This document shows, piece by piece, positions 6,771 through 47,208 of a DNA stretch of 64,000 bases; positions within the stretch are counted from its first letter, which is position 1; each line of letters begins with the position of its first letter. Made by a program: the position numbers and the translations under genes. Origin of the DNA: a virus; IMG/VR virus record IMGVR_UViG_3300035698_029289, positions 9,980 to 73,979 of that record; one strand, given 5' to 3'. The notes beneath the pieces are model-generated. The model did no database searches. It was not told the DNA's origin and saw nothing but the letters and a program-made list of their open reading frames with translations.

Positions 6771-6877
6771 TTGACAAGACAAAATTTTTGTTGTAGTGTT
6801 TAATTAACAGTTACTTGAAGCGAAAAAGCGCTAGAGGACTGCAATATACCCGAGTGGGCGTGATTGCAGTCCTTTTT
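6771..6877 (+). promoter_or_regulatory. leader cassette 1: promoter + internal-loop hairpin + terminator
   Basis: TTGACA-17-TAGTGT; CTT GA AGCG aaaaag CGCT A GAG; AGGACTGCAAT...ATTGCAGTCCT then TTTT. Confidence 0.8.
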
Positions 6878-6893
6878 ATTTGAATTATTAACT

Positions 6894-8963
6894 ATGGCCC
6901 AAAAGAAGAAAGAAAGAAAACCAAAAGGTGTTATCGCCTTTTCAGAGTTAAAGAATCACTACGATTTAGCCAATGATGAGACTGACAAAAGACGGACGGG
7001 TCGAGGAAAAATCGGAACGATTTCTTTTGACGAAGCAGACGAGTTGTTCCGTTCTTGGCTCGATGAAGATAGTTGGCCATATGATGCTCTCCTTTTTGAT
7101 CCTCGCGTTTTCACTTTTATTTTTGAAAAGACTTCAAGGTTAATCTCCAACAAACTCAGAGGAAGATTGATTCCCCGAGAAGGTGGAGATATGTTGGCGG
7201 CTCATATCAATAACGAGTTATTGAGTTTTCAATGGGATCAGGCGACTCATAGCGGCTCAATGATTTCAAAATGGGCTTTAATGGATTTGAATGCGAGGAA
7301 GTATGGCGCTGCTTTTGCTTTGTGTAAATGGCGCTATGAGCTTGCTCCTGATGAGAAAGTTTTGTTTGACGGACCGGGAATGCAAATTTTGAATAATAGA
7401 GATTGTCTCCCCGATCCGGCGGCGACAGACATTGAGTCTTGTAACTGGTTCCAAGCTAGGCAATATGTTACTTTTCAAGACCTTGAAAGGGTTAATGATA
7501 GAGCGCGAACGAAGCCTGTTTACAAAAATCTTGATAAATTAAGAACAGTAATTAGCCAGAAAGCAGAGAAGAGCGGTGGAGATTCCCGAGACATTAACTG
7601 GACATCTCGAAATCGACAAATTTCTGGACTTACCACAGATCCGGTTGGAAAAGACGCTGCCTTCAAGACAGTAGAGATTGTGACAGAATACCGGAAAGGT
7701 CGCTGGATCACCTTTTCGCCCCGACATGGAGTCATCCTTCGAGATATTGCCAATCCATATCACAATAATGAGATTCCGATTGTAATGCTTCGCTATTATC
7801 CGATCGATGACGACTTGTATGGCATGAGCGAAATTGAGCCAGTTAAAGGATTGCAAAAGGCAATCAATGCCATCCTCTCTCAATATGTGGATGAAATCAA
7901 CCAAAAGCTTTATACGCCTATTGCTGTCGGTCCTGGTGTTCGGCAGCACACATTGCGATGGGGAAAGGGTGCGAGGTGGATTATGAACAATCCAATGACA
8001 GACTTTCGATTGGTTGAATCTCGGTCGAATGCGGCACAATTCTTCAACAATACCTATTCTGTATTAGTGGCCGCTTTAATGAATTCTATCGGAGAAACTT
8101 CTTTGGGAGTTTCCAATATTAGCAGGTTTCAAGCAGAAAAGACTGCGACTGAGGTGAAACAGCTTGTTTCTCAAAGAAATGCACGGGATAATTTCAATCA
8201 GACATTTTTGGGAGAGGCGCTTAAAAGACAAATGATTCTGTGGCATACCATGAATCAAGTAATGATATTCAGCGATCCAGAAAAGAAATCCTATGTTATT
8301 CGGATTATTGGAAGAGACGCAATCCGATACTTTGAAGAAAGCGGGATTGGGGCTTATGGCTTGACCGAAGAGGGAGCAAAATTGCTTCAAGAAAACACAG
8401 AAAGGACGATGGCAGAAGGAGGCGAAGAAACAGGAATTCCAGAGGACTTCATGATTCCAATGTCGCCAGTGTCAATGGGAGAAGAAGAGGAGGCTATCCC
8501 CAAGTTTTCTCTTGACATGAGCAAGCAACTTGGTACTTTAGTTATAGAGCCAGAGGATTTAAAAGGAAATTATGATTTCATTGCCGATGTGGAATCGATG
8601 GCTTTATCGGCAGGAGAACAGCAAATGCAAGGAAGAAAAGCTGCTTTCAATATGCTTCTTTCTAATCCGCTGGTAGTAGAATTTTTGGCAAAGGAAAAAG
8701 TGAGACCGAAGTTTAAAGATTTGTTTGTTGCATGGCTTGAGGATGTTGGAATGAAAGATGCTGAGAAGTTCTTTGAAAATATTCCGCCTGAGGAAATGCT
8801 TGGTCCACCGGGAATGGGACAACCAGGAATGGGTCAGCCCGGAATGGCTCCGCAGGGAATGGGACAGCCACCAATGACAATGGGTAGTCCTATGCCAGGA
8901 GGTCCAGGCGGCGTGGCTCCATTAGCTCCTTCTCCGAGAGCGAGAGGAGGTGGAACAGTTTAA
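6894..8963 (+). CDS. portal protein
   Basis: ~690 aa after TerL; YGMSEIEPV, KTATEV motifs; PGMGQ-repeat tail. Confidence 0.88.
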   Translation: MAQKKKERKPKGVIAFSELKNHYDLANDETDKRRTGRGKIGTISFDEADELFRSWLDEDSWPYDALLFDPRVFTFIFEKTSRLISNKLRGRLIPREGGDMLAAHINNELLSFQWDQATHSGSMISKWALMDLNARKYGAAFALCKWRYELAPDEKVLFDGPGMQILNNRDCLPDPAATDIESCNWFQARQYVTFQDLERVNDRARTKPVYKNLDKLRTVISQKAEKSGGDSRDINWTSRNRQISGLTTDPVGKDAAFKTVEIVTEYRKGRWITFSPRHGVILRDIANPYHNNEIPIVMLRYYPIDDDLYGMSEIEPVKGLQKAINAILSQYVDEINQKLYTPIAVGPGVRQHTLRWGKGARWIMNNPMTDFRLVESRSNAAQFFNNTYSVLVAALMNSIGETSLGVSNISRFQAEKTATEVKQLVSQRNARDNFNQTFLGEALKRQMILWHTMNQVMIFSDPEKKSYVIRIIGRDAIRYFEESGIGAYGLTEEGAKLLQENTERTMAEGGEETGIPEDFMIPMSPVSMGEEEEAIPKFSLDMSKQLGTLVIEPEDLKGNYDFIADVESMALSAGEQQMQGRKAAFNMLLSNPLVVEFLAKEKVRPKFKDLFVAWLEDVGMKDAEKFFENIPPEEMLGPPGMGQPGMGQPGMAPQGMGQPPMTMGSPMPGGPGGVAPLAPSPRARGGGTV

Positions 8964-9298
8964 TGACAGATAAATCGCAACCAGATATTGAAAAGGGAAG
9001 AAAATTGAACAGAAAAGAAATAGGGGAATTGAGGGAAGGGCAGGGTGTTTATGAAATGACTCAAACACCTGGGTGGCAAACCGTAAAAGGATGGTTGGAA
9101 GACAGAGCGTTTCATAGTTGGGTAGACCCACGTGAAACCAAGTCAAAAAAGGAGTGGGAATGGCAAGAACTAAATGCCTTCCACTCAGCGGATGTGTCAA
9201 GCCAGTTGTTAATAGATATTCAAAGGGCTGTTGAAAGGTCGGAGTATCTTGACAAAGTGAAAAAGGGTGAAATAAAAGAAAGGCGAATGAGAATTTAA
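8963..9298 (+). CDS. small helical protein downstream of portal
   Basis: TPGWQTVKGWL; TAATG-coupled to portal. Confidence 0.7.
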   Translation: MTDKSQPDIEKGRKLNRKEIGELREGQGVYEMTQTPGWQTVKGWLEDRAFHSWVDPRETKSKKEWEWQELNAFHSADVSSQLLIDIQRAVERSEYLDKVKKGEIKERRMRI

Positions 9299-9318
9299 TG
9301 AAAGGAGGTGTAAGAATA

Positions 9319-9387
9319 ATGGAATTTGGAAGTTTTTTAAAAGGCAAAAAGAAAAAGAAAAAAAAGAAAAAGAAGGAGGCGAAATAA
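9319..9387 (+). CDS. 22 aa poly-lysine peptide
   Basis: MEFGSFLKGKKKKKKKKKKEAK; strong SD AGGAGGTG; stop abuts next ATG. Confidence 0.5.
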   Translation: MEFGSFLKGKKKKKKKKKKEAK

Positions 9388-9591
9388 ATGCCATATCGCA
9401 GGAGCGGAACTAAAGTCTTACACAAAAAAGGAGGCAAGTGGAAAGTAAAACAAACTTGCCGCTCTGAAGCTGCTGCCAAAAGAGCCATGAGCTTATTGAG
9501 AGGCTTGGAATCTGGTAGCATTAAGCCAAGCCAAGTTGGGAAAGGAAAGTTTGCCAAAAAAAGGAAAACTAGCCGGAAGAGAAAGAAATAA
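9388..9591 (+). CDS. very basic small protein
   Basis: 67 aa K/R-rich; SD AGGAGG. Confidence 0.7.
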   Translation: MPYRRSGTKVLHKKGGKWKVKQTCRSEAAAKRAMSLLRGLESGSIKPSQVGKGKFAKKRKTSRKRKK

Positions 9592-9857
9592 TGCCTAAAA
9601 AATTGCCTGATTTGCCGGGTTCGGATGAAAGCACTTTAAAAACTAACAGAATGGATTCTTTCTACGAGAAGAAGCCAAGTGATATTTGGAAAGGATATGT
9701 GGAGAACATAAAATTGAAAGGGCGAAAGAAATGTTCTCATAAATTTAGACATATTCAAAGAGGAATAGAATGCGAAAAATGTCACATCGGTTTTGTAGGA
9801 GAAGGATTGAGGATTAAAAACGGGCACATTTTCTTCGGTAATCAAAGATTTCTTTGA
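9591..9857 (+). CDS. small Zn-ribbon protein
   Basis: CSHKF...ECEKC. Confidence 0.65.
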   Translation: MPKKLPDLPGSDESTLKTNRMDSFYEKKPSDIWKGYVENIKLKGRKKCSHKFRHIQRGIECEKCHIGFVGEGLRIKNGHIFFGNQRFL

Positions 9858-9975
9858 TTGTCGAAATTAGTGTACCTTTAAAAATAAATTAGAGGGAATA
9901 TTTTATCATTCACCTAAGCGGTAATGCTTGCCGCCTATAACCATTATTAAATAGAGCATAAGAAAGGAGGTGAAA

Positions 9976-10944
9976 ATGACAATAAATACAGGGCTTAAAA
10001 GACCCCCTGAGAAGGTAGAACCTCAGGCTGGAGCAAAGCCTACTCCAGAGAAAAAAGAACCTGTTCCTCAGGTTAAGGAGGTTGAAACCGAAACCCAACC
10101 AAAACCAGGAACAGAGGGGGAGTTGCCAGGAGGCGCTTCGGAGAGGACCCGAGAGCAATTTGACAAGCTCAAAAGTAGCAATCAAAGACTGCTCGAGGCA
10201 AACAAACTTCTCCAAGGAGAAATAGCTAGAAGGGTTCAAAGTGAACAAACTTTTGCCCCGATTCAGCAAATTCCAGGAGTGCCACAAGCGCCGACACAGG
10301 CGCCATTGCAAACTCCAACTCAACCAGCTCAAGTTCCTGCGCCCGATGTTGAGCAATTCGTCGCTGTAGATCCTATTACTGGGGAGCGGTATCTTAATGA
10401 ACCTAAACTCGGTCAGGCAATCGCCGACGCAAATGCTCGAGCAAAGAGGGCAGAAAAGTCAGTTCAGAACTATATTTTGCAACAGAGATCGATTGAGGAA
10501 GAGCAACAGACGCGAGAAGCGTTTACTGCTCACCCCGAGCTTAATCCGAAGTCAAAAAAGTTCGAGAAAGGACTGCATACAAGAACACGAGCGCTTCTCT
10601 TGGATTCGATGATGAATCCAAGTGACTATGACAATCATTCTTTGAGTTTCAAAGAAGCAGGAGATTTAGCAAAGAAGCAATCAGCAAAAGATGCTAAAGA
10701 ACTGACAAAGAAAGTCGATGAAGAAAGTCAAAAAGCACTTGAAGCCAAAGAGCAAGCTAGTCTAGCGGTAGAGGGGAAACCGGGAACACCGTCCCCCTCA
10801 CAAGAACCATCTGAGGAGCTTGCTAACTTAGCGAAGAAAACCCGTGAGGGAGATATTTGGGCATTAGCTCGAAGATTGCAAAATACTCCACACACTGGAA
10901 CACCAACTTCTTCGACAGAAGAAGGAACCGAAGAGAAGAAATAG
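9976..10944 (+). CDS. capsid scaffolding protein
   Basis: P/E/Q-rich coiled-coil protein just upstream of MCP; SD AGGAGGTG. Confidence 0.75.
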   Translation: MTINTGLKRPPEKVEPQAGAKPTPEKKEPVPQVKEVETETQPKPGTEGELPGGASERTREQFDKLKSSNQRLLEANKLLQGEIARRVQSEQTFAPIQQIPGVPQAPTQAPLQTPTQPAQVPAPDVEQFVAVDPITGERYLNEPKLGQAIADANARAKRAEKSVQNYILQQRSIEEEQQTREAFTAHPELNPKSKKFEKGLHTRTRALLLDSMMNPSDYDNHSLSFKEAGDLAKKQSAKDAKELTKKVDEESQKALEAKEQASLAVEGKPGTPSPSQEPSEELANLAKKTREGDIWALARRLQNTPHTGTPTSSTEEGTEEKK

Positions 10945-11021
10945 TGCGAGAGAGTTGTGCCTCCCGTGCTATGACCGGGAGGTCAATTATCCTGCACAAG
11001 AAAGGAGTGTGAAAAAATTAT

Positions 11022-11930
11022 ATGGCGTGGGGATTAATTACATATCAAGATGCCGCGCGTAGAGAAGATCTATTGGATGTTATCGGAGATGTATCTCCTG
11101 ATGAGACTCCACTTTTGACTCTTTTCGGCACAAGCACGGCAAAAGGAACTCTGCACGAATGGCTGGCATACTCAGTCTCAAGACCAACTTCGGTATCTGC
11201 CGATGTTGAAGGAGCTGATACCACATTCGGAGATTTGACTCAACCCAACAGAGTAGTCAATGTTACCCAAATTATTAAAGAACCGGTTCAAGTTTCTCGA
11301 ACCGAGCGACGGGTTAATGTGGCTGCAATGGGAGATCCGTATGCTTTCCAAAAAGCAGAAGCACTTCGTCGTCTAAAAATGAATATGGAGTATGCTTTAC
11401 TGAATGCTGCGAAAGCCTCTGGATCGTCTGGTTTGGCTCGTCAAATGAATGGAATCGATGCTTTCATCACAACTACTGTTACTGCTCGAAACTCAGGAAC
11501 TTCGTTTTCTGAAACTGAGCTAGAAGCTATGGTTTCTGATGCCTGGACAACAGTCGATCCCGACAAGGTATTTGACATGCTTCTTTGTACTTTCAAAATC
11601 AAGCAGAAAATTGCCGGGTTCTCTGGAAACTCTACTAGATATATTGATGCAACTGAACGAAGACTTGTTAAAGACGTGTTGGTTTATGATTCCGCTGGTG
11701 GATCTCACAGAATCTTTGCACACAAAGATGTGAGGAACTCAGCAGGTTCAACAACTATCTTGGGCCTACGAGAAGATTTGTACAAGACTGCGTATCTCGA
11801 CAAACCAATGTTTGAAGAACTTGCTAAAACAGGTGATGCGGACAAGGGTCACTGGGTAACAGAATTTACGCTTGAGTCTATAGCAGAGAAGGCTAGTTTG
11901 AAGCGAACAGGGTATAATCAAAACGGGTAG
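11022..11930 (+). CDS. major capsid protein (DUF5309/SU10-like HK97 fold)
   Basis: REDLLDVI..SPDETP, HEW, EGAD, NVTQI, ELAKTGDA..GHWVTEFTLE. Confidence 0.92.
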   Translation: MAWGLITYQDAARREDLLDVIGDVSPDETPLLTLFGTSTAKGTLHEWLAYSVSRPTSVSADVEGADTTFGDLTQPNRVVNVTQIIKEPVQVSRTERRVNVAAMGDPYAFQKAEALRRLKMNMEYALLNAAKASGSSGLARQMNGIDAFITTTVTARNSGTSFSETELEAMVSDAWTTVDPDKVFDMLLCTFKIKQKIAGFSGNSTRYIDATERRLVKDVLVYDSAGGSHRIFAHKDVRNSAGSTTILGLREDLYKTAYLDKPMFEELAKTGDADKGHWVTEFTLESIAEKASLKRTGYNQNG

Positions 11931-11982
11931 TAATACCCGAATGGTTGATATTTTATCCTGGTTTTGGTAGTATGAGAATACT

Positions 11983-12940: not shown

Positions 12941-12957
12941 GAGGGAGGTGAATAAAC

Positions 12958-27680: not shown

Positions 27681-27778
27681 TTGACAGGATCCCTTTAATT
27701 TAGTTAGAATGATTTAATACCTCCGAAGCAGCAAATTGCTAGGGGGGAACAAGAGACAAATTTTATTTGTCTTTTTTT
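27681..27778 (+). promoter_or_regulatory. leader cassette 2
   Basis: TTGACA-18-TAGAAT; CTCC GA AGCAG caaa TTGCT A GGGG; AGACAAAT..ATTTGTCT then T-tract. Confidence 0.8.
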
Positions 27779-27784
27779 GTTGCC

Positions 27785-28337
27785 ATGAATGATGAGATAG
27801 TTACCACACCATTGCCAGAAGGGAAAGAAAAATTGGGGAAAGATCGGCCCGAGACGGAACAGGAAGTTAGAGTAACAAAACAACTAGAGCAATTTCAAAC
27901 AGAAAAGAAAGAAAAAATTGCTAAGCCAATCTATAAAAAAGAGCCTCCCGTAAAAGCAGAGGTCGAAGAAAAAGTCAAGGAAGCAGTTGAAGAGGAGGTC
28001 AAAGAAAAAGAGCCAGTTGTTTCTCCGGAAGACTATTACTTGACTGATCCTCTTTTTTATAAAGTGGCGAATTATTTCGGGCTAGCACAAAGAGATTGGA
28101 GCATTGCCAAAGACAAATTGTCTGTGATTGTTGACTGGGCTGTTCTTAGAACTCAATCACGGAAAGCCGCTGATGTTTTAACAGCGATTCGTGCATTAGA
28201 GGATGAGATTACCTCGCCTGGTCTGGGAGAAAGAAGATATGCCAATGTTCACAAATTTGTTCGCTTATTGGGTCAAAAAGAATCTTTAGAAAAAGAGTTA
28301 AAAGTTTATAAAAAACATGAAGTAAAGGAGGTGGTAA

Positions 28338-28345
<8 letters not shown>
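27785..28345 (+). CDS. hypothetical protein
   Basis: E/K-rich N-terminus, helical C-terminus. Confidence 0.65.
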
Positions 28346-30660
<2,315 letters not shown>

Positions 30661-30661: not shown

Positions 30662-30689
30662 TTGACATAACATAAAGTTATGCTATACT
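30662..30689 (+). promoter_or_regulatory. promoter of HNH-AP2 gene, probably leaderless
   Basis: TTGACA...TATACT 6 nt before ATG 30696; no SD. Confidence 0.7.
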
Positions 30690-30695
30690 TAAAGC

Positions 30696-31196
30696 ATGGC
30701 AAAAGTGAGACTGAATAAATATATAGATTGTGGAGATTACTACGAAGTTATCCTCACAAATAAGGATAGAAAAGAAATTGCTAGGGCGAAAGTTGATAAA
30801 GGGGATGTGGAGAAGGTGAAAATATGCCGATGGGGGTTAAATAGCACTACGGGAACTACGCAAGGGTGGGTAAATAAAAGGATGACTGCTATGCACATAG
30901 TTATTTTGGGAAAGAAGGATGGCTATGTAACAGACCATATAAATCATGATGTGTTGGACAATCGGAGAAGTAACATACGGCACGCAACGAAAAGTCAGAA
31001 TGCAATGAATCAGCGGGATGTCGCTGGTGTTTATTTTGTCAAGCGGGTTACAGTAAAGACAAAAAAGTGGGCTGCGCAAATTTACAAAGATGGCAAGCAC
31101 ATTACTCTTGGATACTTTTTAACAAGGGAAGAAGCCACGAAAGCTAGAAGGGAAGCAGAAAAAAAGTATTATGAAGAATTTGCTTATAGGGATTAA
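30696..31196 (+). CDS. HNH-AP2 homing endonuclease
   Basis: DHINHDVLDNRRSNIR...QN; KWAAQI...LGYF..EEA..AR. Confidence 0.92.
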   Translation: MAKVRLNKYIDCGDYYEVILTNKDRKEIARAKVDKGDVEKVKICRWGLNSTTGTTQGWVNKRMTAMHIVILGKKDGYVTDHINHDVLDNRRSNIRHATKSQNAMNQRDVAGVYFVKRVTVKTKKWAAQIYKDGKHITLGYFLTREEATKARREAEKKYYEEFAYRD

Positions 31197-35798: not shown

Positions 35799-35895
35799 TT
35801 GACAAAGGATAATTATCCTTAGTATAGTTAAATTACATATTCTCCGAAGCAGCAAATTGCTAGGAGAAGGCAAGCTTTATTGGCTTGCCTTTTTT
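35799..35895 (+). promoter_or_regulatory. leader cassette 3
   Basis: TTGACA-18-TATAGT; TTCTCC GA AGCAG caaa TTGCT A GGAGAA; AGGCAAGC..GCTTGCCT then TTTTT. Confidence 0.85.
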
Positions 35896-35931: not shown

Positions 35932-36249
35932 ATGGGAGATTTAGTAAACCTATGGGGAGAATCAGGTCGAAGTATCATCAATGATGACACATCGCCAACC
36001 CTTACTCTTAAAAATATAGAGTCTACTGCTACCACTGGTGGCAGTGCTCTTCAAGTTGAGGCTTTGGGTACTGGTCCTACTCTTAATGTTATAGTTTCAG
36101 GAACTTCTGGAACAACTCTTAAATTGAACAACCTTGCAAAAGGTTATGTCTCAACTAACTCATTATCTACTATTTCCTATGCCATGAGGGTAGACATTGG
36201 TGGAGTGATTTTTTACATGCCAGTTTATCTCGGTGTAGAAATAGCATAA
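35932..36249 (+). CDS. short fibre/spike-like protein
   Basis: shares C-terminus GYVSTNS..TIS.AMRVDIGG.I.YMPVYLG with the next gene. Confidence 0.65.
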   Translation: MGDLVNLWGESGRSIINDDTSPTLTLKNIESTATTGGSALQVEALGTGPTLNVIVSGTSGTTLKLNNLAKGYVSTNSLSTISYAMRVDIGGVIFYMPVYLGVEIA

Positions 36250-36933: not shown

Positions 36934-37551
36934 ATGGCCTTGTGTAAATGCGGTTGCGGTCGTGAAACAAAAATTGTTTGTGGTAAACCAAATCGGTTTA
37001 TTCATGGGCATAGTGGGAATTTTTATAAAAATGGGCACGAGTTTCAAGGAGACATAGCAAGGTCAAACTATTTCAAAAAAGGTTACACTCCTTGGAACAA
37101 AGATAAAAAAGGGGTTTTTTCTGTGGAAGCACGTAAAAAACAATCAGAAGCCGCCAAAAATCAAAAAAATAGAAATATTGAGGGATTGAAATTAGGCTGG
37201 GGATATTGGAGGGATAAACATAACCCACATATGGTTGGAGAAAAGAATCCTAATTACAAAGGAGGCATTAGTAAAATTAAAAAGAATAGTCGTCGATTAG
37301 ACATGGAAACGCTTGAGTATAAACAATGGCGAAGAGCGGTTTTTAAGAGAGATTATTGGACATGTTTGTCTTGTGGTGAGTCTAAGGGTGGAAATTTTAT
37401 AGCTCACCATATTAAAAAATATGATGACTATCCTTCTTTAAAATATAATGTTGATAATGGATTTACACTTTGTGGAAAATGTCACCTATTTACATATGGG
37501 TATGAAGAAGATTATGAAAAATATTTTTTGGAGATATTAAAATGGCAATAA
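36934..37551 (+). CDS. HNH homing endonuclease with NUMOD-like N-terminus
   Basis: CKCGCG, PWNK, NPNYKGG, WRRAVFKRD..C..C..AHH..NGFTLC..CH. Confidence 0.9.
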   Translation: MALCKCGCGRETKIVCGKPNRFIHGHSGNFYKNGHEFQGDIARSNYFKKGYTPWNKDKKGVFSVEARKKQSEAAKNQKNRNIEGLKLGWGYWRDKHNPHMVGEKNPNYKGGISKIKKNSRRLDMETLEYKQWRRAVFKRDYWTCLSCGESKGGNFIAHHIKKYDDYPSLKYNVDNGFTLCGKCHLFTYGYEEDYEKYFLEILKWQ

Positions 37552-38237: not shown

Positions 38238-39020
38238 ATGAGGGATAAGAAGGGAAAGTTCCAAAAAGGCCATGCCCCATGGAATAAGGGAAAGACTGGA
38301 GTTTATTCGGAAGAACGACTAGAGGAATTAAGCCATTGTGCCAAAACTGGAGTGACGGGAATGTTGGGGAAAAAGCATAGCGAAGGAACAAAAGAAAAAA
38401 TGAGCATAGTTAAAAGAGGAAAAGTGTTTTCCGAAAAACATAAGAAAAACTTAAGCAAGGCACATAGGAAAAGAGGAACAATTCCTCCTAGGTGGTGGGA
38501 AGATCCCATTCTTGCCACTAAAACCATGGGGAAGCTAAAGAAGAAAAAAGTGGTTATTCGGTGTGGAGTTTGTGGAAAAAAGTTTAAAGTTATTCCTTCT
38601 AGGGCTAAAACGGCTAATTTCTGTTCAAAGCAATGTCATAATAAATCAATGATTGGTCGTCTTCTTACTAAAGAGTGGAAAGAAAAAATGATTAAAAATA
38701 CCCTAATGGCGATGTTAAAACGTCCCACCTCTCTTGAAAAACAAATGATTGCCCTAATCAAAAAACACAATCTTCCCTATAAATATGTTGGTGATGGGGG
38801 CTTTTTAATAGGCTATAAAAATCCCGATTTCGTAAACATTAATGGAGAAAAGAAATTGATTGAAATTGGCAATGAATTTCATCACAAACCGCCATACACG
38901 AAGAATCGGAGGAAACACTTCGCCAAATACGGTTGGGAAAGCTATATTTTTATAGGAGATGAATTGGATGAGGGAAAAATACTAAAAATCCTAGGGAGTA
39001 AATTATGTTACAACGATTAA
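38238..39020 (+). CDS. NUMOD3 + Vsr/DUF559-like homing endonuclease
   Basis: GKKHSEGTKEKMS; PTSLE; YVGDG; NPDF; IEIG..H. Confidence 0.8.
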   Translation: MRDKKGKFQKGHAPWNKGKTGVYSEERLEELSHCAKTGVTGMLGKKHSEGTKEKMSIVKRGKVFSEKHKKNLSKAHRKRGTIPPRWWEDPILATKTMGKLKKKKVVIRCGVCGKKFKVIPSRAKTANFCSKQCHNKSMIGRLLTKEWKEKMIKNTLMAMLKRPTSLEKQMIALIKKHNLPYKYVGDGGFLIGYKNPDFVNINGEKKLIEIGNEFHHKPPYTKNRRKHFAKYGWESYIFIGDELDEGKILKILGSKLCYND

Positions 39021-40939
39021 AACAACCAAAATTTAAAGCACCACGTCAAGCCGTAGCTGATTGGGACAATTTTCGCGGAGGATTAAATTCTTTACTTCGT
39101 CCCACAGAACTTGCAAAGAACGAATTGGCTCAAATGGAGAATTTAATGCTTATCGGTCGTGGAGTTCCCACTAAGCGATGGGGAACACAAAATTATTTCC
39201 TTGCAGGAGTGACTGGTTACGGCAGAGGTTTGTTTCACGCCAAATCGGCTGTGGGAACAAGTGAGGTTTTAGGCATTACTGACTGGGGGCTTTTGGTCAA
39301 AAGAAGCGGAGCAAGTTATACGGTTTTGACTGGTGCTTCCTGGGGATCGGGATATAACCTTGAAGCCACGCAGCTTAATAATAGGGTATATTTGGTCAAC
39401 GGACAGAGAGAGTTGGTAAGATATGACTTTTCCACCCTGACAGGGTTTCCCACATTGTCGGTTCCAGCTGGTGTGGCGGCAACTAACCTTTCGGGGGCAA
39501 CCGGTGACACTACTTATTCATGGAGAATTGCCGCAACTTCTCAAGTGGGAGAAACGCTTGGATCAGCGGCCGTTGCCATGGCGAGCCTGCCCCAAGAACT
39601 TTCTGATACGAGCATTAGAGTTCAATGGACGCCAGTTTCGGCAGCCTCAGGGGACCTTACCGGTTATAATATTTATCGGGGTTCACCCGGTGATGAAACA
39701 TGGTTGGCTTTTGTGGACGATGATACTAGCTCTTATGATGATGCGGGCTTAGATGTATCGCAACTGCGGGTGCCTCAAACCAAAGATACAACCGGAGGAC
39801 CGATTGCCAAATGGATTATCCGGTACGAAGACAGATTGATTCTTGCTGGGATTTCTGGTGAACCCACTAAAATCATGATTTCGGGAAGAGTTCCGAACCA
39901 AGACAAATTCACTTGGCCTTATGGAGGAGGATATGTTTTGGTCGATCCCGACACAGGAGATGAGATAACTGGTCTTGCCGTTCACCAGGGAAAGATTATT
40001 GTTTTCAAGGAAAATTCTGTTTGGCAAGTAACTCTTAGTACAATAACAGTTGGCAATTTCACGATTCTTGAGCCTTCTTATGAATTGATTACTGCTTCTC
40101 AGGGTTGCACCAGCCACCGATCGATTGTGCCGGTTGAAAACGATTTGCTTTTCTGCAACAGGCAGGGTGTATATATCTTGGGATTCGAACCCAATATTTT
40201 GGCAGCTGTTTTGAGAACCAATGAGTTGTCAGTGAAAATCCGGCCATTTTTTGAAGCGATTACTCCGACAGACTTTGATGATGCTAGTGCGAATTACTTT
40301 GACCACAAGTATGTTTTGTCTTTTCCTGGTGCCAAAAAATGTATTGTCTTTGATAGGGAAAGAGCCGCTTGGGTCGGACCATGGACCACGGGGTTTGGAA
40401 CAAACAAGTTTATTAAATATGTTGATTCGGGCAATGTTGAAAGATTGCTGGGAATAGATGCAGAAGACAATTATGTCAGTGAATTTTCAAAGACGTTGAA
40501 TAGCGACAAGGGAACTGCCTTCAGGACTCTTTTGAAAACACGGAAAGAAGATTTTGGAGACTGGACGATTTTCAAGACCATCAATGAATCATTTTTATCT
40601 TTCAGGAATGTTTTGGGGAGTGTTAATATCAATATTTTCTTGGAGGGAAGAGCGGGAGAGATAATCACCGCCAAAACATTTTCCATTGTCAGCCAAAAGG
40701 GTGTTTCCGGCTGGGGAACCGATCAATGGGGATTGACTCAATGGGGGTTATCAAAGAATGACGCAGAACTGTCTTCAGAAGAATTAATTAGGCAGGCGTT
40801 GCTTTATAAAACCGCACGGACTTTCCAGGTGGAATTGATTTCGTCTGCCACAAGAGACAACTATGAATTACTAGGCATTAAGACTTTCTCTACCTTGCAA
40901 GGGCGTGGCTCAAGCCCATCTGATTGGAGAGCCTCTTAA
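39005..40939 (+). CDS. tail nozzle / tubular protein B-like
   Basis: FRGGLN, N..L...G...KRWG, GDEITGL, IIVFKE, GC.SH.SI. Confidence 0.8.
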   Translation: MLQRLKQPKFKAPRQAVADWDNFRGGLNSLLRPTELAKNELAQMENLMLIGRGVPTKRWGTQNYFLAGVTGYGRGLFHAKSAVGTSEVLGITDWGLLVKRSGASYTVLTGASWGSGYNLEATQLNNRVYLVNGQRELVRYDFSTLTGFPTLSVPAGVAATNLSGATGDTTYSWRIAATSQVGETLGSAAVAMASLPQELSDTSIRVQWTPVSAASGDLTGYNIYRGSPGDETWLAFVDDDTSSYDDAGLDVSQLRVPQTKDTTGGPIAKWIIRYEDRLILAGISGEPTKIMISGRVPNQDKFTWPYGGGYVLVDPDTGDEITGLAVHQGKIIVFKENSVWQVTLSTITVGNFTILEPSYELITASQGCTSHRSIVPVENDLLFCNRQGVYILGFEPNILAAVLRTNELSVKIRPFFEAITPTDFDDASANYFDHKYVLSFPGAKKCIVFDRERAAWVGPWTTGFGTNKFIKYVDSGNVERLLGIDAEDNYVSEFSKTLNSDKGTAFRTLLKTRKEDFGDWTIFKTINESFLSFRNVLGSVNINIFLEGRAGEIITAKTFSIVSQKGVSGWGTDQWGLTQWGLSKNDAELSSEELIRQALLYKTARTFQVELISSATRDNYELLGIKTFSTLQGRGSSPSDWRAS

Positions 40940-40943
40940 TCCC

Positions 40944-41038
40944 TTGACAAGGAAGCGAATTGTTGTTTTAATTAATTATAGAGTCTGTTAAGCGGGAAAC
41001 GCTCGCAGACGACAATAGGGTCTAACCGACCCTTTTTT
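40944..41038 (+). promoter_or_regulatory. leader cassette 4
   Basis: TTGACA-17-TTTAAT; GTCTGT TA AGCG ggaaa CGCT C GCAGAC; AGGGTC..GACCCT then TTTTT. Confidence 0.8.
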
Positions 41039-41067
41039 ATTGGAATAAATTAAAAGAAAGGAAGAAA

Positions 41068-41748
41068 ATGTCCTGGCCTAAAGGAAAACCAACATGGAAT
41101 AAAGGGAAAATTGAATGGAAAAAGTGTAAAGTGTGTGGGAAGAAAATTAGAAAGTGGCGAGTTTATTGTTCGAAAGAATGTGTATCAATTGGAAGAAGTG
41201 GAGAAAATAGATGTGGATTTAAAAAAGGACATATTCCTTGGAACAAAGATATGAAAAGGAGTGAAGAATTTAAAAAGGCATGCCGAGAGAGAGCACTTAG
41301 ATTAAAACAAAAACCACCCAAATATAATAAAAGAGGAAAAAATCATTGGAATTGGAAAGGTGGTTTACCAGTTTGTGTTGAGTGTGGGAAAATAATCTCT
41401 AGGTATAGGACTCGATGTCTCAAGTGTCATCTTGGAACAAAAAGAATGACTACTTTAGAAAAGAAAGTTCAGAATGTGATTAATAAATATAAATTGCCAT
41501 ATAAATTTGTTGGAAATGGAGAATTTTTTATTGAAAGGAAAAATCCTGATTTCATTAATATAAATGGAGAGAAAAAAGCTATTGAAGTTTATTGGAAGCG
41601 ACACAAAGATAAATTTAAAAAGGGAGGATTTGTGGGTTGGAAAAAAGAAAGAGAAACAGTTTTTTCTAAGTATGGTTGGACAATTATTTTTTTAGATGAA
41701 AATAACATGATAGAAGAAAAAATATTAGAAGCCTTAAGAAAGGGGTGA
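41068..41748 (+). CDS. Zn-finger + Vsr/DUF559-like homing endonuclease (paralog of 38238)
   Basis: PWNK, WNWKGG; TTLE; LPYKFVGNG; NPDFININGEKK. Confidence 0.8.
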   Translation: MSWPKGKPTWNKGKIEWKKCKVCGKKIRKWRVYCSKECVSIGRSGENRCGFKKGHIPWNKDMKRSEEFKKACRERALRLKQKPPKYNKRGKNHWNWKGGLPVCVECGKIISRYRTRCLKCHLGTKRMTTLEKKVQNVINKYKLPYKFVGNGEFFIERKNPDFININGEKKAIEVYWKRHKDKFKKGGFVGWKKERETVFSKYGWTIIFLDENNMIEEKILEALRKG

Positions 41749-41753
41749 GTTGA

Positions 41754-42575
41754 ATTTCAGCAAAACTCTGGGAATCGGCAGGCGTAAACGCTTTTCAGAC
41801 AACCCTTAATGGATCAATAGCAAGTGACACTACAACCATTACTCTGTCTTCAGTAACAAACTTGGTTGCCCCAAGTATTCTTGTTATTGACCGGCAAGAT
41901 GGTGTTGGAAATGATACTCCAACGAAAAGAGAATACATTTCTTTTACTGGAATTAGCGGGAATGATCTTACAGGAGTCACTCGTGGGGTAGCCAGTTCTA
42001 CTGCTCAGGCCCACTCTTCCGGTGCTTTAGTTGAAGCGATCCCTTCTGCAACTCACTGGACGGATTTAGTAGATTTCTTACAGGTAGAACACTCTTCTGC
42101 TGGGAAGCATGTTCTCTCCACGGTGACTATTGCTTATGCTGAGGTGGCAAGATTGGTTGTGACTTCTTTAGCCTCACTTGCTGTTGTAAATGTAAAAGGA
42201 CAATTTGTGTGGACAAGTGCAGGAGCTCTAGTAACTTCTTTGGCAACTGCTCCTGGGGATAGTCATTTACCTTTTTTGAGAGCAAGGAAGAATTTGACTT
42301 TAAATGGTGTTTGGGCAGGTTTAAATTCTGCTCCTTCAACAGCAGCATTTCAGGCTAATATCAGTTATCGTTCAGAACCAACAGGGGCTCATACGACCCT
42401 TTTGTCAACCGCATTAACGATTGACGTGGGCGAATATGAGTCGAGAACTGCGGCGACTCCAGTAGTTTTAGGATTGACAAGTTTAGCATCAGGGACTCTT
42501 TTGAGCCCGAGCATTGATGCTCCGGGTGATGGAGGAGACCTCACTTTGACTATAGCTGCGACAGAGCGACCATAA
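41754..42575 (+). CDS. tail fibre/baseplate-like protein, probable ATT start
   Basis: Frame open from ATT 41754 (SD AAGGGGTGA); TTLNGSI...EYISFTG..GN.LTGVTRG...AHSSGA. Confidence 0.7.
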   Translation: MSAKLWESAGVNAFQTTLNGSIASDTTTITLSSVTNLVAPSILVIDRQDGVGNDTPTKREYISFTGISGNDLTGVTRGVASSTAQAHSSGALVEAIPSATHWTDLVDFLQVEHSSAGKHVLSTVTIAYAEVARLVVTSLASLAVVNVKGQFVWTSAGALVTSLATAPGDSHLPFLRARKNLTLNGVWAGLNSAPSTAAFQANISYRSEPTGAHTTLLSTALTIDVGEYESRTAATPVVLGLTSLASGTLLSPSIDAPGDGGDLTLTIAATERP

Positions 42576-43153
42576 TGGCAAACATACTTATTAATTCTGA
42601 TTTTGAGAATGGAAGTGGAGACCGAACCACAGAAGGGTGGCTTGGCAATAGTTCTGCTTATGGTACTTATCTTATGGCTGCTTATGGAACTTTATCCTTT
42701 CAGGCTACCGCTTATCATGGTTCTCAGGCTATTAAACTTGATGTTGGACAAAGCTCTTGGCTTGAAGTAAGTAATGTTGATACAAATGATACTAATGCAA
42801 TCAAGGCCTATTGTCCTGCGATTACAGGAAACACAAAATATAAACTTACTGGATGGCAGAAAAGCGATGGCTTCAGCGTTGGTGTTCAAGGATTATGTGT
42901 TTATATTAGGGAATTTGATTCGGATGGAGCTGTTATTGTTAATTTGGCTACGGATGGTATGTTAGGCACTCAAGACTGGACAGAAGTAACACACACTTGG
43001 ACAACTCACGCTGATGCCGCCTACATAGGAATTACCTATATAAGGGCACACGGAGATGGAGGAGCTACTGGCGATTTATATGCCGATTACTTTAGTTTGG
43101 AAGAAGTAGGAGAAGAAGAAAAAAACAACATTTATGGATATTTTAATTGCTAG
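42575..43153 (+). CDS. carbohydrate-binding (CBM4/9-like) virion protein
   Basis: NILINSDFE, YKLTGWQKS, GTQDWT, YADYFSL. Confidence 0.75.
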   Translation: MANILINSDFENGSGDRTTEGWLGNSSAYGTYLMAAYGTLSFQATAYHGSQAIKLDVGQSSWLEVSNVDTNDTNAIKAYCPAITGNTKYKLTGWQKSDGFSVGVQGLCVYIREFDSDGAVIVNLATDGMLGTQDWTEVTHTWTTHADAAYIGITYIRAHGDGGATGDLYADYFSLEEVGEEEKNNIYGYFNC

Positions 43154-43155
43154 AC

Positions 43156-43812
43156 ATGAGAAATAAAAACATTATACATAAATGTAAAAACTGTGGAAAG
43201 AAATTTTTCCATCGGTCGAAAGGAGCTAATAAATATTGTTCTCATAAATGTTATGTCGAACATTATTGGACAAAGGAAAGACGAGAAGCTCAAGCAATAA
43301 AAAGTAGAAAAAGAATATTAAGTAAAAATCCTATGGAAAATAAAGAAAATAGAAAAAAAGTAAGTTTGTCTAAACTAGGAAAAAAAAGAAAGCCATTTAG
43401 TAAAAAATGCAAAGAAAATATGAGCAATGCTCATAAGGGAGAAAAGAGTTGGTTTTGGGGAAAAAAGGGAAGTCAGCATCCTGGTTGGAGAGGTGGTTTA
43501 TCATCATTGAATCAATTAATTAGAAGCAATGGTTTAATGGACTCTTGGAGAAGAAAAATATTCGAAAGAGACAATTTTACTTGTCAGGAGTGTAAAGGAA
43601 ATGGGCGGTTAGTAGCACATCATATTGTTACTTTCATAACTCTCTTGCGAAAAAACCATATAACAACAGTAAAAGAGGCAGAAAAATGTGATGAACTATG
43701 GAATCTTGATAATGGTATAACTCTATGTAAAAAGTGTCATGACCCTACGATTAAAAGAGAGAAATTATATGAAGAAAGATACAAGGAAATTATTGAAAGT
43801 TTCAATGTTTAA
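43156..43812 (+). CDS. NUMOD3 + HNH homing endonuclease
   Basis: WRRKIFERDNFTCQEC, AHHI, NGITLCKKCH. Confidence 0.9.
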   Translation: MRNKNIIHKCKNCGKKFFHRSKGANKYCSHKCYVEHYWTKERREAQAIKSRKRILSKNPMENKENRKKVSLSKLGKKRKPFSKKCKENMSNAHKGEKSWFWGKKGSQHPGWRGGLSSLNQLIRSNGLMDSWRRKIFERDNFTCQECKGNGRLVAHHIVTFITLLRKNHITTVKEAEKCDELWNLDNGITLCKKCHDPTIKREKLYEERYKEIIESFNV

Positions 43813-43817
43813 CTAAT

Positions 43818-43988
43818 ATGCCAGGACCAGGAAGTCGCATTTCTACTTGGAAAATTTGCCCAGAATGTGGAGAGGAATTTTTATCTTACACAAGGAAGAT
43901 TTGTGAGGATTGTTATCAAAGATTGAGATATCAAAGAAAGAAGAAAAAGTTACTTCAAAAGAAAAAAGAATTGTTGAACATAAAATGA
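43818..43988 (+). CDS. 56 aa Zn-finger protein
   Basis: Below track cutoff: MPGPGSRISTWKICPECGEEFLSYTRKICEDCYQRLR... Confidence 0.6.
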   Translation: MPGPGSRISTWKICPECGEEFLSYTRKICEDCYQRLRYQRKKKKLLQKKKELLNIK

Positions 43989-44140
43989 AAGAAAAGGATT
44001 TTGTTATCAGGAAATATTGGGGTTCTTTTGGCATCAGAAGAAGTGCTAAACCAACTGTTGAATCAGCTGAACTAACTCGTGATGAAAAGAACGCCGAATG
44101 GGTGCGAAAAAAAAATAAAGAGGCGGAAAGCTGGCTTTAA
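43985..44140 (+). CDS. small hypothetical protein
   Basis: ATGA-coupled; MKEKDFVIRKYWG... Confidence 0.5.
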   Translation: MKEKDFVIRKYWGSFGIRRSAKPTVESAELTRDEKNAEWVRKKNKEAESWL

Positions 44141-44199
44141 TCAGTTTACTGGATTTTACAAAGGGCGTTGGTGGGTTAAGGGTAGACCGATGAAAAGAA

Positions 44200-44493
44200 A
44201 TGAAAGAAAGGTTGTGGAAGGCAATATCAGAAATAGACGGAGAAATCTTTTCTCTGGGAATGAAAGATGCCGAAATAATCCGCTTACCTGAAAGTGAATG
44301 GATTGAAGGAGGAGAACATGGTATTTTTGCGACAAGACATAAGTCAGATGCCGAAAAAGTTATTTACTCTGCCGAACATAGAAAGGTTTTGTCAATACCA
44401 TTAAACATGAAAGTGATACCTATTATTGGTGAGATAAAGGATGATAGAGGGAAGACAGTAGTTTGTGAAAGGATTTTAATAGAAGGTGAATAA
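44200..44493 (+). CDS. hypothetical protein
   Basis: 97 aa ORF overlapping the next start. Confidence 0.6.
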   Translation: MKERLWKAISEIDGEIFSLGMKDAEIIRLPESEWIEGGEHGIFATRHKSDAEKVIYSAEHRKVLSIPLNMKVIPIIGEIKDDRGKTVVCERILIEGE

Positions 44494-46453
44494 AGAAATA
44501 GGATTACACTATTTAGGGGGTGACTTTAAGACAAGAACCCAAATCAGACGGAAACTTCTCTCTGAGGAGTTGACTGCTCCGCTCCAATTAACAAAACCTG
44601 CTTTAGTTAGAACCTTCGCTGAATGGCAGCCGATTATAAACAGACGGCAAAAAGAATACCAGGAACTCCTTGGAATACCAGAAACAATCCACATTGAAAT
44701 CGCTACTGAAAAACCAATCCTGCTTGTCCCCATAGGGGATGTTCATGCCGAGCATCCTGAAACCAATCTTGAACAATTTGGTAAAGACATAGATTTAGCA
44801 AAATCAGTTAATGCGTATTTTATCACTTTAGGAGATTTAACCAATAGTATCTTCTGGAAAGCAGAACCTTCCTTAATGACTGCCCAAGAGTCAACAATGT
44901 ATATCAGGTCGGCCTTGAAATATATGGCGGAAGATGGACACCTTTTGGCTTCATGGCTTGGCGACCATGATTGTCTTGATGAGAAAACGGAAGTATATAC
45001 AAAACGAGGTTGGTTAAAATGGAATGAGCTTAATGAAAAGGATAATCTTTTGACTATAAACCCCGATGGTGGGTTGTTAGAATGGCATAAATACGAAAAG
45101 AAAATTGTTGAAGATTTTGATGGAGAGCTAATTCATATCAAGGGTAAAAATATTGACTTGTTGGGAACAGAAAACCATCGGGTGTTTTATCAAAAGCGAA
45201 GAACTGATAAATATGATTTTATCCCCTTGGAACAGTTTGCTAGTTTAAAGTGGGCAGACCATTATGGAATTCCTAATGCTTCAACTTTTAATTTTAGTGA
45301 TTATCCGATATCAGATGAACTAATTCGATTGGTGGCGTGGTTGATTACTGATGGGTGGATTCAAACAAGAAAAGGCTATGGTTATCAACGGGTATGTTAT
45401 ACACAAAAGGAAGAGGATGCTCATTTAATTACTGATATTTTGGATGGACTTGGTTTTAAGTATTCTGCTAAAAGAAGGATTAGAACAAGAGATAAAATTG
45501 ATGGCATGAAAATTAAATCCTTAAAGCCATCTATTGATATAGGAGTTTGTTCCAAAGATTCTAAGAAAATTTTAGATTTGATTAAAGATAAAAAATCCAT
45601 GCCGTCATGGGTTTATAAATTGAGTGATAGGCAGTTTGACGCTTTTCTGGATTCTTTGATTGATGGTGATGGAACTCGGCTTCCGAGAATGAAGAATTGT
45701 GCTTGTTTCTATCAAAAGAGCAAGAAATTGATTGATGAATTACAGGCTTTGTGTGCGATGCACAATATTAAAACCAACATTTACGAGTATAAAAACCGAA
45801 TGGGGAATAAGCAATATCGGCTCAATATAAATTTTAGGAAAGACACTCGATTGGTTTCTCCAAAAGCGGTTAGAGAAAATTACAAGGGGAAGATTTGGGA
45901 TGTTTCAATACCACCTAACAGAAACTTCTTTGTTAGAAGAAATGGCAAAGCGTATTTTACTGGTAATTCTTGGGCTTTTGACAAACACGGAAGCCATACA
46001 CTTTACGCTGATTTTTGGGAGAAGTTTAACGCCCATTTACTAGACGGAGTATCTTATGTTGATATTGGACTTAATAACGGAGATACAGTCCAGAAATACG
46101 GGATAGTTGGCTCTCATCGCCACCCTGGCCACAGTATCTACAATTCCAGCCATCAATGTTTAAGACAATGGAGAGATGAGGGAGTAGGGTCTCTTATTAG
46201 TATTTCTGCTCACAAACACACTAAGGCCCATAATCAACAAACCCATAAACTTTATGGTGGAAAAGAGGTTGTGTTTCATTCTGTTGCCATAGGAACATAT
46301 AAAGAATCAGACCGATATAGCAGAAAACACGGTTGGCCACGCAAGGGAGAAAAGACAGCTGGAGCGTTTGGAATAGTGCTTTATCCAGGCAAGGAAAAAA
46401 TTCACATTTTCTGGGAATTAGAAGATGCGGTAGACGCACTAAGCAAGGCTTGA
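44486..46453 (+). CDS. calcineurin-like metallophosphoesterase containing an intein
   Basis: GDVH, GDL, GDHD, HRH, AHKHT motifs. Confidence 0.85.
   Translation: MNKEIGLHYLGGDFKTRTQIRRKLLSEELTAPLQLTKPALVRTFAEWQPIINRRQKEYQELLGIPETIHIEIATEKPILLVPIGDVHAEHPETNLEQFGKDIDLAKSVNAYFITLGDLTNSIFWKAEPSLMTAQESTMYIRSALKYMAEDGHLLASWLGDHDCLDEKTEVYTKRGWLKWNELNEKDNLLTINPDGGLLEWHKYEKKIVEDFDGELIHIKGKNIDLLGTENHRVFYQKRRTDKYDFIPLEQFASLKWADHYGIPNASTFNFSDYPISDELIRLVAWLITDGWIQTRKGYGYQRVCYTQKEEDAHLITDILDGLGFKYSAKRRIRTRDKIDGMKIKSLKPSIDIGVCSKDSKKILDLIKDKKSMPSWVYKLSDRQFDAFLDSLIDGDGTRLPRMKNCACFYQKSKKLIDELQALCAMHNIKTNIYEYKNRMGNKQYRLNINFRKDTRLVSPKAVRENYKGKIWDVSIPPNRNFFVRRNGKAYFTGNSWAFDKHGSHTLYADFWEKFNAHLLDGVSYVDIGLNNGDTVQKYGIVGSHRHPGHSIYNSSHQCLRQWRDEGVGSLISISAHKHTKAHNQQTHKLYGGKEVVFHSVAIGTYKESDRYSRKHGWPRKGEKTAGAFGIVLYPGKEKIHIFWELEDAVDALSKA
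44972..45967 (+). mobile_element. intein with LAGLIDADG endonuclease (332 aa)
   Basis: GDHD|CLDEKTEV...TENH...WLITDG...LIDGDG...YFTGN|S. Confidence 0.93.
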
Positions 46454-46528
46454 AAATAAGATGTCCAGTATTTTCTTTTCTTATTGGAGAAATGGTATAA
46501 TAATGAAAATGAGGACAGAATAAATATT

Positions 46529-47047
46529 ATGCCAAAAGGAGTTTATTTTCGTACTGAAGCAACTAGAAAGAAAATAAGTGAAGCCCGTATGGGTAAAAAG
46601 CTTTCTGAAAAAACTAAACGGAAATTGAGTGAAATTCATAAACGGATTGGCACTAGGCCACTTTCTCGTAAAGGCATCATTTTGAGTGAAGAGCTTAAAA
46701 AGAAACTAAGTAAAATTCATAAAAAAATCGGAACTATGCCGCCACACCCTAAAGGAAAAGACCATCCTAACTGGAAAGGTGGCTTCTCGCTTTATCCTAT
46801 TGATTGGACAGAAACCCTAAAAGAATCTATCAGACAAAGAGATAACTGTGTTTGTCAGTTATGCGGAATACATCAAGGCGAATTAAAAGGATTTCATAAG
46901 AAACTAGATGTTCACCATATTGATTATAATAAAGATAATCTAAATCCAGACAACTTGATTTCACTTTGTAAAAGTTGTCACTTGAAAACTAATTATAATC
47001 GGGAATATTGGCTTGAATATTTTCAACAAAAGGAAGTGAAAATATAA
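46529..47047 (+). CDS. NUMOD3 + HNH homing endonuclease
   Basis: SEKTKRKLS repeats; RDNCVCQLC; LDVHHIDY; NLISLCKSCH. Confidence 0.92.
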   Translation: MPKGVYFRTEATRKKISEARMGKKLSEKTKRKLSEIHKRIGTRPLSRKGIILSEELKKKLSKIHKKIGTMPPHPKGKDHPNWKGGFSLYPIDWTETLKESIRQRDNCVCQLCGIHQGELKGFHKKLDVHHIDYNKDNLNPDNLISLCKSCHLKTNYNREYWLEYFQQKEVKI

Positions 47048-47111
47048 ATGATAAACTGGCGTGATGGAATATTGAACAGGCGATAGATTTTATGGCAATC
47101 TGATTATTCCC

Positions 47112-47208
47112 TTGACAAAGGTGGAGGCATGGTTTAATAATGTATTATATGTTCATAAGGCGGTTTAATCGCTAGTGAACAAGAAGAGCCGATAATTGGC
47201 TCTTTTTT
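47112..47208 (+). promoter_or_regulatory. leader cassette 5
   Basis: TTGACA + AT-rich -10; GTTCAT AA GGCGGT tta ATCGCT A GTGAAC; AAGAGCC..GGCTCTT then TTTT. Confidence 0.78.

Follow-up and report, generated by a model that had tools for sequence, protein, structure and literature searches.

Late-gene timing in phages that use only the host RNA polymerase is understood for a few models, namely N, Q, put, Ogr/Delta and late sigma factors. One described arrangement close to the one reported here is that of the BglG/SacY/LicT antiterminators and their ribonucleic antiterminator (RAT) sites (also PyrR, HutP and ANTAR-type regulators), in which a bulged hairpin of ~30 nt is placed immediately upstream of a leader intrinsic terminator, often overlapping it, with one site per terminator and local action. 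We analysed a window of 64,000 nt (bases 9980-73979 of the 73,979-bp IMG/VR viral contig L029) and found five units, each with the order sigma-70-type promoter, two-tier hairpin, intrinsic terminator and gene start. Unlike RAT, which gates sugar operons, these units are viral and multi-copy and would gate virion genes; their hairpin shape and consensus differ, and three of the five have a spacer in place of an overlap with the terminator. They are also analogous to lambda N/nut, in that a promoter-near hairpin of the nascent RNA would let the host polymerase pass terminators and so time the phage genes. Our reading, which we regard as plausible and about evenly balanced, is that a hairpin-specific RNA-binding factor locally relieves the adjacent terminator. 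A whole uncultured phage family seems to use this other design, with many small self-contained gates, one per virion-gene block.

All five units lie on the + strand, with TTGACA at 6771, 27681, 35799, 40944 and 47112. The −35 hexamer is exact in 5 of 5 units and is followed 15-18 bp later by a −10-like hexamer (TAGTGT, TAGAAT and TATAGT in units 1-3; TGN-preceded TTTAAT in units 4 and 5), the spacers differing among units. The hairpin starts 38-43 nt past the first T of the −35, only a few nucleotides after the predicted transcript begins. Its outer stem measures 3-7 bp; further in come a 2-nt loop on the 5′ side (GA, GA, GA, TA and AA in units 1-5) facing a single 3′ nucleotide (A, A, A, C and A), a 4-bp inner stem RGCN/NGCT and a terminal loop of 5-7 nt; the 2-nt by 1-nt internal loop and the (A/G)GC..GCT inner stem noticed earlier are present in all five. 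The terminator, a GC-containing stem-loop with 5-7 T, lies 0-8 nt past the hairpin, and the start codon is 9-39 nt downstream of the U-tract in every unit.

Unit 1 has its promoter at 6771-6799 (−35 at 6771-6776, 17-bp spacer, −10 TAGTGT at 6794-6799) and its hairpin at 6814-6836 (outer stem 3 bp, GA/A, inner stem AGCG/CGCT; 25.3 bits with the covariance model described below). Its terminator at 6836-6881, which shares one base with the hairpin, has a 10-bp stem (6836-6845/6863-6872) around a small inner hairpin and a T-run from 6873; the portal ATG follows at 6894. The promoter of unit 2 (27681-27710, 18-bp spacer, TAGAAT) precedes a hairpin at 27720-27746 (outer stem 5 bp, GA/A, inner stem AGCA/TGCT; 23.5 bits) and a terminator at 27755-27778 with a 7-bp stem, a 3-nt loop and seven T (27772-27778), the next ATG being at 27785. 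In unit 3 the promoter (35799-35828, 18-bp spacer, TATAGT) leads to a hairpin at 35840-35868 (outer stem 6 bp, GA/A, inner stem AGCA/TGCT; 25.8 bits), whose apical part is identical to that of unit 2, and to an abutting terminator at 35869-35895 (8-bp stem, six T); the gene that follows (35932-36249) has a strong Shine-Dalgarno site. Unit 4 comprises the promoter at 40944-40972 (17-bp spacer, TTTAAT after TGT, of the extended −10 type), the hairpin at 40983-41010 (outer stem 6 bp, TA/C, inner stem AGCG/CGCT, pentaloop GGAAA; 28 bits) and the terminator at 41017-41038 (stem of 5-6 bp, six T). Unit 5 has at 47112-47140 TTGACA followed by either TGG-TTTAAT (15-bp spacer) or TAATAA (17-bp spacer), then the hairpin at 47150-47181 (outer stem 7 bp, AA/A, inner stem GGCG/CGCT with a G.U pair; 22.9 bits) and the terminator at 47186-47208 (7-bp stem, six T at 47203-47208), before the gene 47221-47502.

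The original prediction of a five-copy promoter-hairpin-terminator cassette therefore describes all five sites correctly. When a structural descriptor was run over the whole 73,979-bp contig, more hairpins of this shape were found, but the promoter and terminator context only in these five, all on the + strand. The combined descriptor gave on average 0.12 units per window in 300 dinucleotide-preserving shuffles (maximum 2), as against 5 in the real sequence. Unconstrained RNAfold places the hairpin and the terminator in two adjacent domains in 5 of 5 units, with energies of -17 to -25 kcal/mol.

It had also been stated that the units stand just before late-gene blocks (portal, collagen, fibres, tail tip, ejection/lysis). 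Unit 1 does precede the portal gene (6894-8963, +), but after unit 4 the next gene (41068-41748) looks like one of the homing-endonuclease type and not a tail-tip gene. This gene is missing at the orthologous site in two relatives (G001 and G006), where the corresponding unit directly precedes the homologue of 41862-42575; because of this absence it looks like an insertion between unit 4 and the gene that the unit would gate. Likewise, the collagen-like fibre gene (28705-30660, +) is in the block behind unit 2, but as its third gene. The genes directly after units 2, 3 and 5 encode small proteins without a known family.

The claim that the stems covary, pointing to selection on structure, was borne out in a wider sample. 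In a gap-free alignment of 18 copies, 90.9% of the pairs are standard, against 55.5% with the 3′ partners shuffled (reached in 0 of 500 shuffles); two-sided changes occur at 11 of 11 stem pairs, and registers slid by 1-3 columns are 34-47% paired. The covariance model built from this alignment scores the five copies of the window at 22.9-28 bits and finds nothing else there at E≤10. Applied to 700 kb of related DNA, the model yields 29 aligned copies, drawn from at least 10 phages, with 88.6% paired against 55% on shuffling (0 of 500), 99% in the inner helix and 31-48% in the slid controls, and with all 11 pairs changed on both sides. These paired percentages lean towards structure, as the 18 seeds were hand-picked as canonical copies and the alignment of 29 is model-fitted, and the shuffle statistics are inflated by the kinship of the sequences. 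Independent of these alignment caveats is the count of 25 G.U pairs against 9 A.C juxtapositions, from which it follows that the folded molecule is the + strand RNA and not the DNA. Selection on the hairpin as RNA is thus supported by the pattern of sequence change. Among other explanations of the fold, a DNA operator or palindrome was rejected for the G.U excess and the asymmetric bulges, a CRISPR-repeat mimic since the stems covary freely, a K-turn for want of tandem G.A pairs, a leader-peptide attenuator since there is no plausible leader open reading frame (ORF), and an RNase III site since the helix is too short. The search of Rfam gave no match in the window at the gathering threshold; in E-value mode the only match was STnc390, with 21 bits where 50 are needed (E 1.5). 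A literature search turned up no description of this unit.

The unpaired positions are the most conserved part of the hairpin. All 29 copies have A as the second base of the 5′ bulge, the 3′ bulge is A or G in 27, and the loop has the consensus A-A-(C/A)-A-(A/C), its first base being A in 22 and G in 4 of the 29. Such conserved unpaired bases are typical of an operator that is recognised by a protein, and a mere stem would not be expected to need them. In outline the hairpin resembles the coat-protein operators of MS2 and PP7 (lower stem, 5′ bulged purine, short upper stem, small A-rich loop), a likeness of shape only, and those are translational operators of RNA phages. In the phage of the window the loops have drifted, while the five copies share the inner stem RGC..GCT and the GA/A internal loop. 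A hairpin signature specific to the genome resembles the co-evolution of a binding protein with its sites, which we take as suggestive only. The hairpin varies in detail from one related phage to another, much as boxB specificities do. The analogy drawn earlier to lambda N/nut did not hold beyond this general likeness, since no nut site of the boxA/boxB type is present. Lambda boxB has a 5-bp stem with a GNRA-like pentaloop (GAAAA, GAAGA, GACAA), whereas the stem here is two-tiered with a 2x1 internal loop; the five leaders and the aligned relatives have no conserved linear motif in common outside the hairpin, such as a boxA (CGCTCTTA-like), and only the YGCT of the inner stem resembles boxA. 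Also, in lambda two sites suffice for N to act processively on many distant terminators, whereas here every terminator has a hairpin and promoter of its own, with 5-9 per genome.

Selection at the RNA level bears on another explanation, namely DNA-level control of the Q type, with a factor loaded onto the polymerase at the promoter and the hairpin incidental. The lambdoid PR′-tR′/Q systems (lambda, 21, 82) have a strong constitutive promoter, a short terminated leader and the late structural genes behind the terminator, and here too a promoter, a short leader and a terminator precede late genes; moreover, units 3-5 have the −35 context CTTGACAAAGG in common. But the −35/−10 spacers are not conserved among the units, and such control leaves the selection on the hairpin unexplained. 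Q is loaded via DNA and a sigma-dependent pause and acts from a single copy per genome, unlike the multi-copy RNA hairpin found here. We also found no match to Phage_antitermQ (PF06530) at E≤1 in five genomes (G000, G001, G006, G007 and G008), with the E. coli control matched and with PF03589 and other Q families outside the search. We therefore hold a Q-type mechanism to be highly improbable.

Relatives were collected by a portal protein search and then a portal profile, which gave 46 IMG/VR loci with portal proteins 44-68% identical. In about 30 of these 46 contigs, a TTGACA promoter, a two-tier hairpin, a terminator and the start codon stand in the same order upstream of the portal gene, so that the fold is conserved in related phages. 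The inner stems vary from phage to phage (GGCG/CGCC, GGTA/TACC, GGAG/CTCC, GATG/CATC, GAGG/CCTC and others) while the geometry is kept. When the loci were read by eye, about 10 were found to keep the promoter or the gene but no terminator, and these also lack the two-tier hairpin; every portal locus with a terminator has the hairpin directly before it. For larger genomes, we compared five bigger relatives and three complete ones of 93-100 kb, which have 1-9 units each, all in late-gene orientation; among the near-complete and complete genomes the number is 2-9. Position is conserved as well: a unit is found before the portal gene in 7 genomes, before the homologue of 27767-28345 in 4, between the homologues of 39005-40939 and 41862-42575 in 4, before the 37542 block in 4-5 and before the homologue of 47745-49043 in 3. 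The observation thereby extends to a family of phages. In several relatives (L003, L045, L060 and other loci) the terminator of the portal unit, ~60-120 nt upstream of the portal start, is nested, with an inner hairpin that has its own T-run inside an outer stem with a second T-run, giving the look of a double terminator. The most distant clade (L065, L067, L070 and L071; portal ~46% identical) shows, in this order, a short plain hairpin, the conserved motif AAGGTAAG and the terminator, and the hairpin with AAGGTAAG may be a different version of the operator.

The hairpin is held close to the terminator. Of 27 units from eight genomes, 26 fold without constraint into two adjacent domains, 25 have hairpin and terminator 0-7 nt apart (median 3), and the distance from the −35 to the hairpin start is 37-44 nt. 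In most portal-site orthologues the two structures share 2-4 nt (usually ..CC), which end the hairpin and begin the terminator stem; that stem has the form CCGNCC ... GGNCGG and is followed by a T-run. If the hairpin forms, the terminator helix would thus lose its base, the part closest to the U-tract. Of the compact intergenic terminators on the coding strand in the late regions of four genomes (G000, G001, G006 and G007), almost all are part of a unit. The window also has a lone intrinsic terminator at 56761-56790 (+), at the end of the 55-kb + strand gene block and facing convergent − strand genes, which is the only strong coding-strand terminator without a preceding promoter and hairpin.

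The spacing is relevant to a rival explanation without any factor, in which the units are constitutive leaky attenuators that set a fixed, reduced flow of transcription and the 5′ hairpin protects the mRNA and the short RNA from 5′-end-dependent decay. The hairpin begins ~3-10 nt into the predicted transcript, and 5′ stem-loops at this place stabilise mRNAs, as in ompA of E. coli and in several Bacillus leaders; our factor searches, which found none, are in its favour as well. For protection, however, a stem alone would do, yet the bulged A and the loop bases are kept across phages whose stems have fully covaried. Nor does it account for a hairpin held at 0-7 nt from the terminator and often overlapping it, or for the portal site, where the hairpin comes and goes with the terminator while promoter and gene stay. 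A strong promoter followed immediately by a strong terminator would also be a wasteful route to a constant level. Three features, namely unpaired bases that are conserved, stems that covary freely and the joint presence or absence of hairpin and terminator at the portal, lead us to prefer a protein operator to a plain stabilising stem, and we consider the latter unlikely, though it is the rival that we take most seriously.

The portal, capsid, fibre and tail genes are placed behind these terminators with no promoter in between, and the polymerase therefore has to read through them at some time; from the gene order, such read-through must occur for the virion genes to be expressed. The terminase genes upstream of unit 1 are ungated. 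Consensus promoters that are equally good but have no hairpin or terminator are present at 1428, 1954 and 30662 (+) and at 1402 and 60134 (−). Since promoters with and without a gate belong to one host type, and no T7-type polymerase or sigma factor was found (see below), timing by promoter class looks unavailable, and it looks as though promoter class alone cannot set late expression. At two of the ungated promoters (1428-1466 and 30662-30698) the start codon is only ~7-8 nt past the −10, and one of the two drives an HNH gene; their mRNAs are probably leaderless or nearly so. Another promoter flavour, TTGACA with a 17-bp spacer and a TG-preceded TTTAAT (TGTTTTAATC), makes up most of the gated promoters of the complete relatives G006 and G007, and the TG-TTTAAT type is also seen at units 4 and 5 of the window.

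The need for read-through could also be served by a self-acting RNA of the HK022 put type, the nascent hairpin making its own polymerase resistant to terminators without any protein. By analogy, putL and putR are RNA elements that lie between promoter and first terminator and suppress termination, a position that the hairpin shares, and no antiterminator protein was recognised in our phages. The put element, however, acts alone with two stems and ~65-70 nt, while there is a single hairpin of 23-32 nt here. Constitutive antitermination in cis would also mean that neither the transcripts of the unit nor those from upstream ever stop, leaving no selection for adjacent terminators, and the strict pairing with terminators argues instead for a regulated switch. 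A put-type RNA is accordingly very unlikely in our view.

A somewhat better, but still small, chance is given to the view that the units produce trans-acting small RNAs of 65-100 nt, for example as a sponge or decoy for an RNA-binding protein of host or phage, with the late-gene position being secondary. A promoter directly before a terminator is the standard layout of small-RNA genes, 5-9 paralogues are present per genome, and the only near-match in Rfam is a small-RNA model, albeit at chance level. Against this, beyond a few unpaired bases the sequence varies freely and has no conserved single-stranded seed, and the units are confined to the coding strand, where they directly precede late-gene blocks at orthologous positions. 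As the downstream genes have no other promoter, read-through in cis would be needed regardless.

Returning to the protein operator, we propose the following course of events. The near-consensus sigma-70 promoter of each unit would fire with the host RNA polymerase, and the first 25-35 nt of the RNA would fold into the operator-like hairpin, in which an invariant bulged A faces a purine between the lower stem and a GC-rich upper stem of 4 bp, topped by an A-rich loop. Transcription would halt at the intrinsic terminator 0-8 nt downstream, giving a leader of 65-100 nt, until a factor, probably encoded by the phage, binds the hairpin and blocks the action of the adjacent terminator; the polymerase could then continue into the virion-gene block. 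Polymerases coming from an upstream block would copy the same hairpin and face the same decision. Because every terminator has its own abutting hairpin, we favour local, non-processive relief in the manner of BglG/LicT-RAT over an N-like action. The idea of antitermination by a protein with an RNA is also that of the ConAn system of pLS20-type conjugative plasmids, which serves the long operons of mobile elements; ConAn, compared here by its description only, is one bipartite processive system heading one operon. Thus, of the antitermination gate suggested originally, the RNA-selected fold between promoter and terminator and the required read-through stand as observations, while we infer termination in vivo and its regulation, along with the factor and its local mode of action.

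Several points weigh against this proposal, apart from the bias of the pairing statistics and the Phage_antitermQ result given above. The promoter starts and the terminators are predictions from sequence, and the hairpin start at about +3 to +10 is also the place of 5′ stabiliser hairpins. The spacers of 4-8 nt in units 2, 4 and 5 (unit 1 having a one-base overlap and unit 3 no overlap) mean that simple base-pair competition is not the general mechanism. No antiterminator-type family was found in Pfam or PHROG among the ~60 proteins of the contig, which is rated ~78% complete in its IMG/VR record, about a fifth of the genome thus being absent from it. Neither did a search of five genomes (three complete) at E≤1 find the CAT_RBD domain (PF03123) of the BglG/LicT proteins, nor did sigma-70 region 4 score over the cut-off in the three complete relatives. 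A T7-type RNA polymerase was not found in these three either, a weak negative as the search control gave no match; the host polymerase is probably used for the late genes.

Three ORFs were looked at in the search for the factor. The ORF at 6473-6763, which ends 7 nt before unit 1, had been suggested as the protein partner. Its family is present in 37 of 37 loci examined, always between the terminase and portal genes, including loci without a portal unit. It has no match in Pfam or PHROG, and a profile finds no sequence relative in the PDB; the likeness of one homologue to DUF2292 is below threshold (15.6 bits against a cut-off of 22). Its confident AlphaFold model (predicted local distance difference test score, pLDDT, of 92) has three helices and a three-stranded sheet, with no Foldseek match at E≤0.001 and no usable match in the ESM Atlas. 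The position may recall that of Q upstream of PR′, yet plain synteny is possible; with no recognisable RNA-binding fold and with its presence in relatives that have no portal unit, the suggestion is neither supported nor excluded. The other two ORFs lie behind unit 1, between the portal and scaffold genes: a zinc-ribbon-like ORF at 9591-9857 (88 aa; C-x-H ... C-x-x-C-H), present in 9 of 9 genomes, and a very basic ORF of 67 aa at 9388-9591 that is coupled to it (TAATG). Both gave no known family and no lead in the ESM Atlas.

A more specific version of the protein-operator reading, to which we incline less and which we offer tentatively, is that a new antitermination system of RNA and protein, common to the whole family, uses the hairpin as its operator, with a small phage protein recognising the bulged A at 5-9 sites per genome and disarming each terminator locally. 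If true, this would be the main device by which a hitherto undescribed podophage group, with genomes of roughly 95 kb, times its virion genes, and it would stand apart from N, Q and put as a form of late-gene control. The novelty is in the RNA motif, which is in no database, terminator-based gating of late genes being known in kind. If the factor is found, it would provide a new RNA-binding antiterminator, a compact, modular and orthogonal switch (~100 bp) for synthetic biology, and a sequence signature for annotating late operons in metagenomic phages.

As to its source, DNA runs containing this stretch are from salt-lake metagenomes only, and no cultured relative close at the DNA level was found. 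The capsid protein is ~30% identical to those of LUZ24-like podoviruses and pelagiphage podoviruses. Three contigs from metagenome-assembled genomes have portal relatives, but their host labels disagree (an archaeon, a gammaproteobacterium and Pedobacter) and give no clue to the host. The + strand gene block spans 55 kb (1464-56515) and holds, besides the split terminase genes (4960-6473, +), which lie upstream of unit 1, and the portal and collagen-like fibre genes, the major capsid gene (11022-11930, +), a large glycosyltransferase region, several HNH/NUMOD3 endonuclease genes and a gene for a protein of 1897 aa. The large terminase is present as two overlapping ORFs, ATPase-like at 4960-5835 and nuclease-like at 5826-6473, and both parts form separate clusters in 9 of the 9 genomes compared; the cause may be a true gene split, a programmed frameshift or the annotation itself. 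Free-standing endonuclease genes of the HNH/NUMOD3 type dot the virion-gene region (36934-37551, 38238-39020, 41068-41748, 43147-43812 and 46484-47047), with others at 1464-1970 and, to the left of the window, at 8745-9251 of the contig.

Both ends have − strand genes, for a single-stranded DNA-binding protein (SSB), a MoxR-type ATPase, a VWA/metallopeptidase protein and a ThiF-type E1. The stretches 57153-59433 and 60139-61520 (−) hold a MoxR-type AAA ATPase gene beside that of a DUF2201 metallopeptidase/VWA protein, with the ThiF-type E1-like gene and a weak PARP-like match close by. Twelve tRNA genes are clustered immediately to the left of the window (7133-9787 of the contig, −), namely those for His, Phe, Glu, Asp, Ala, Ser, Tyr, Gly, two Gln, Trp and Asn.

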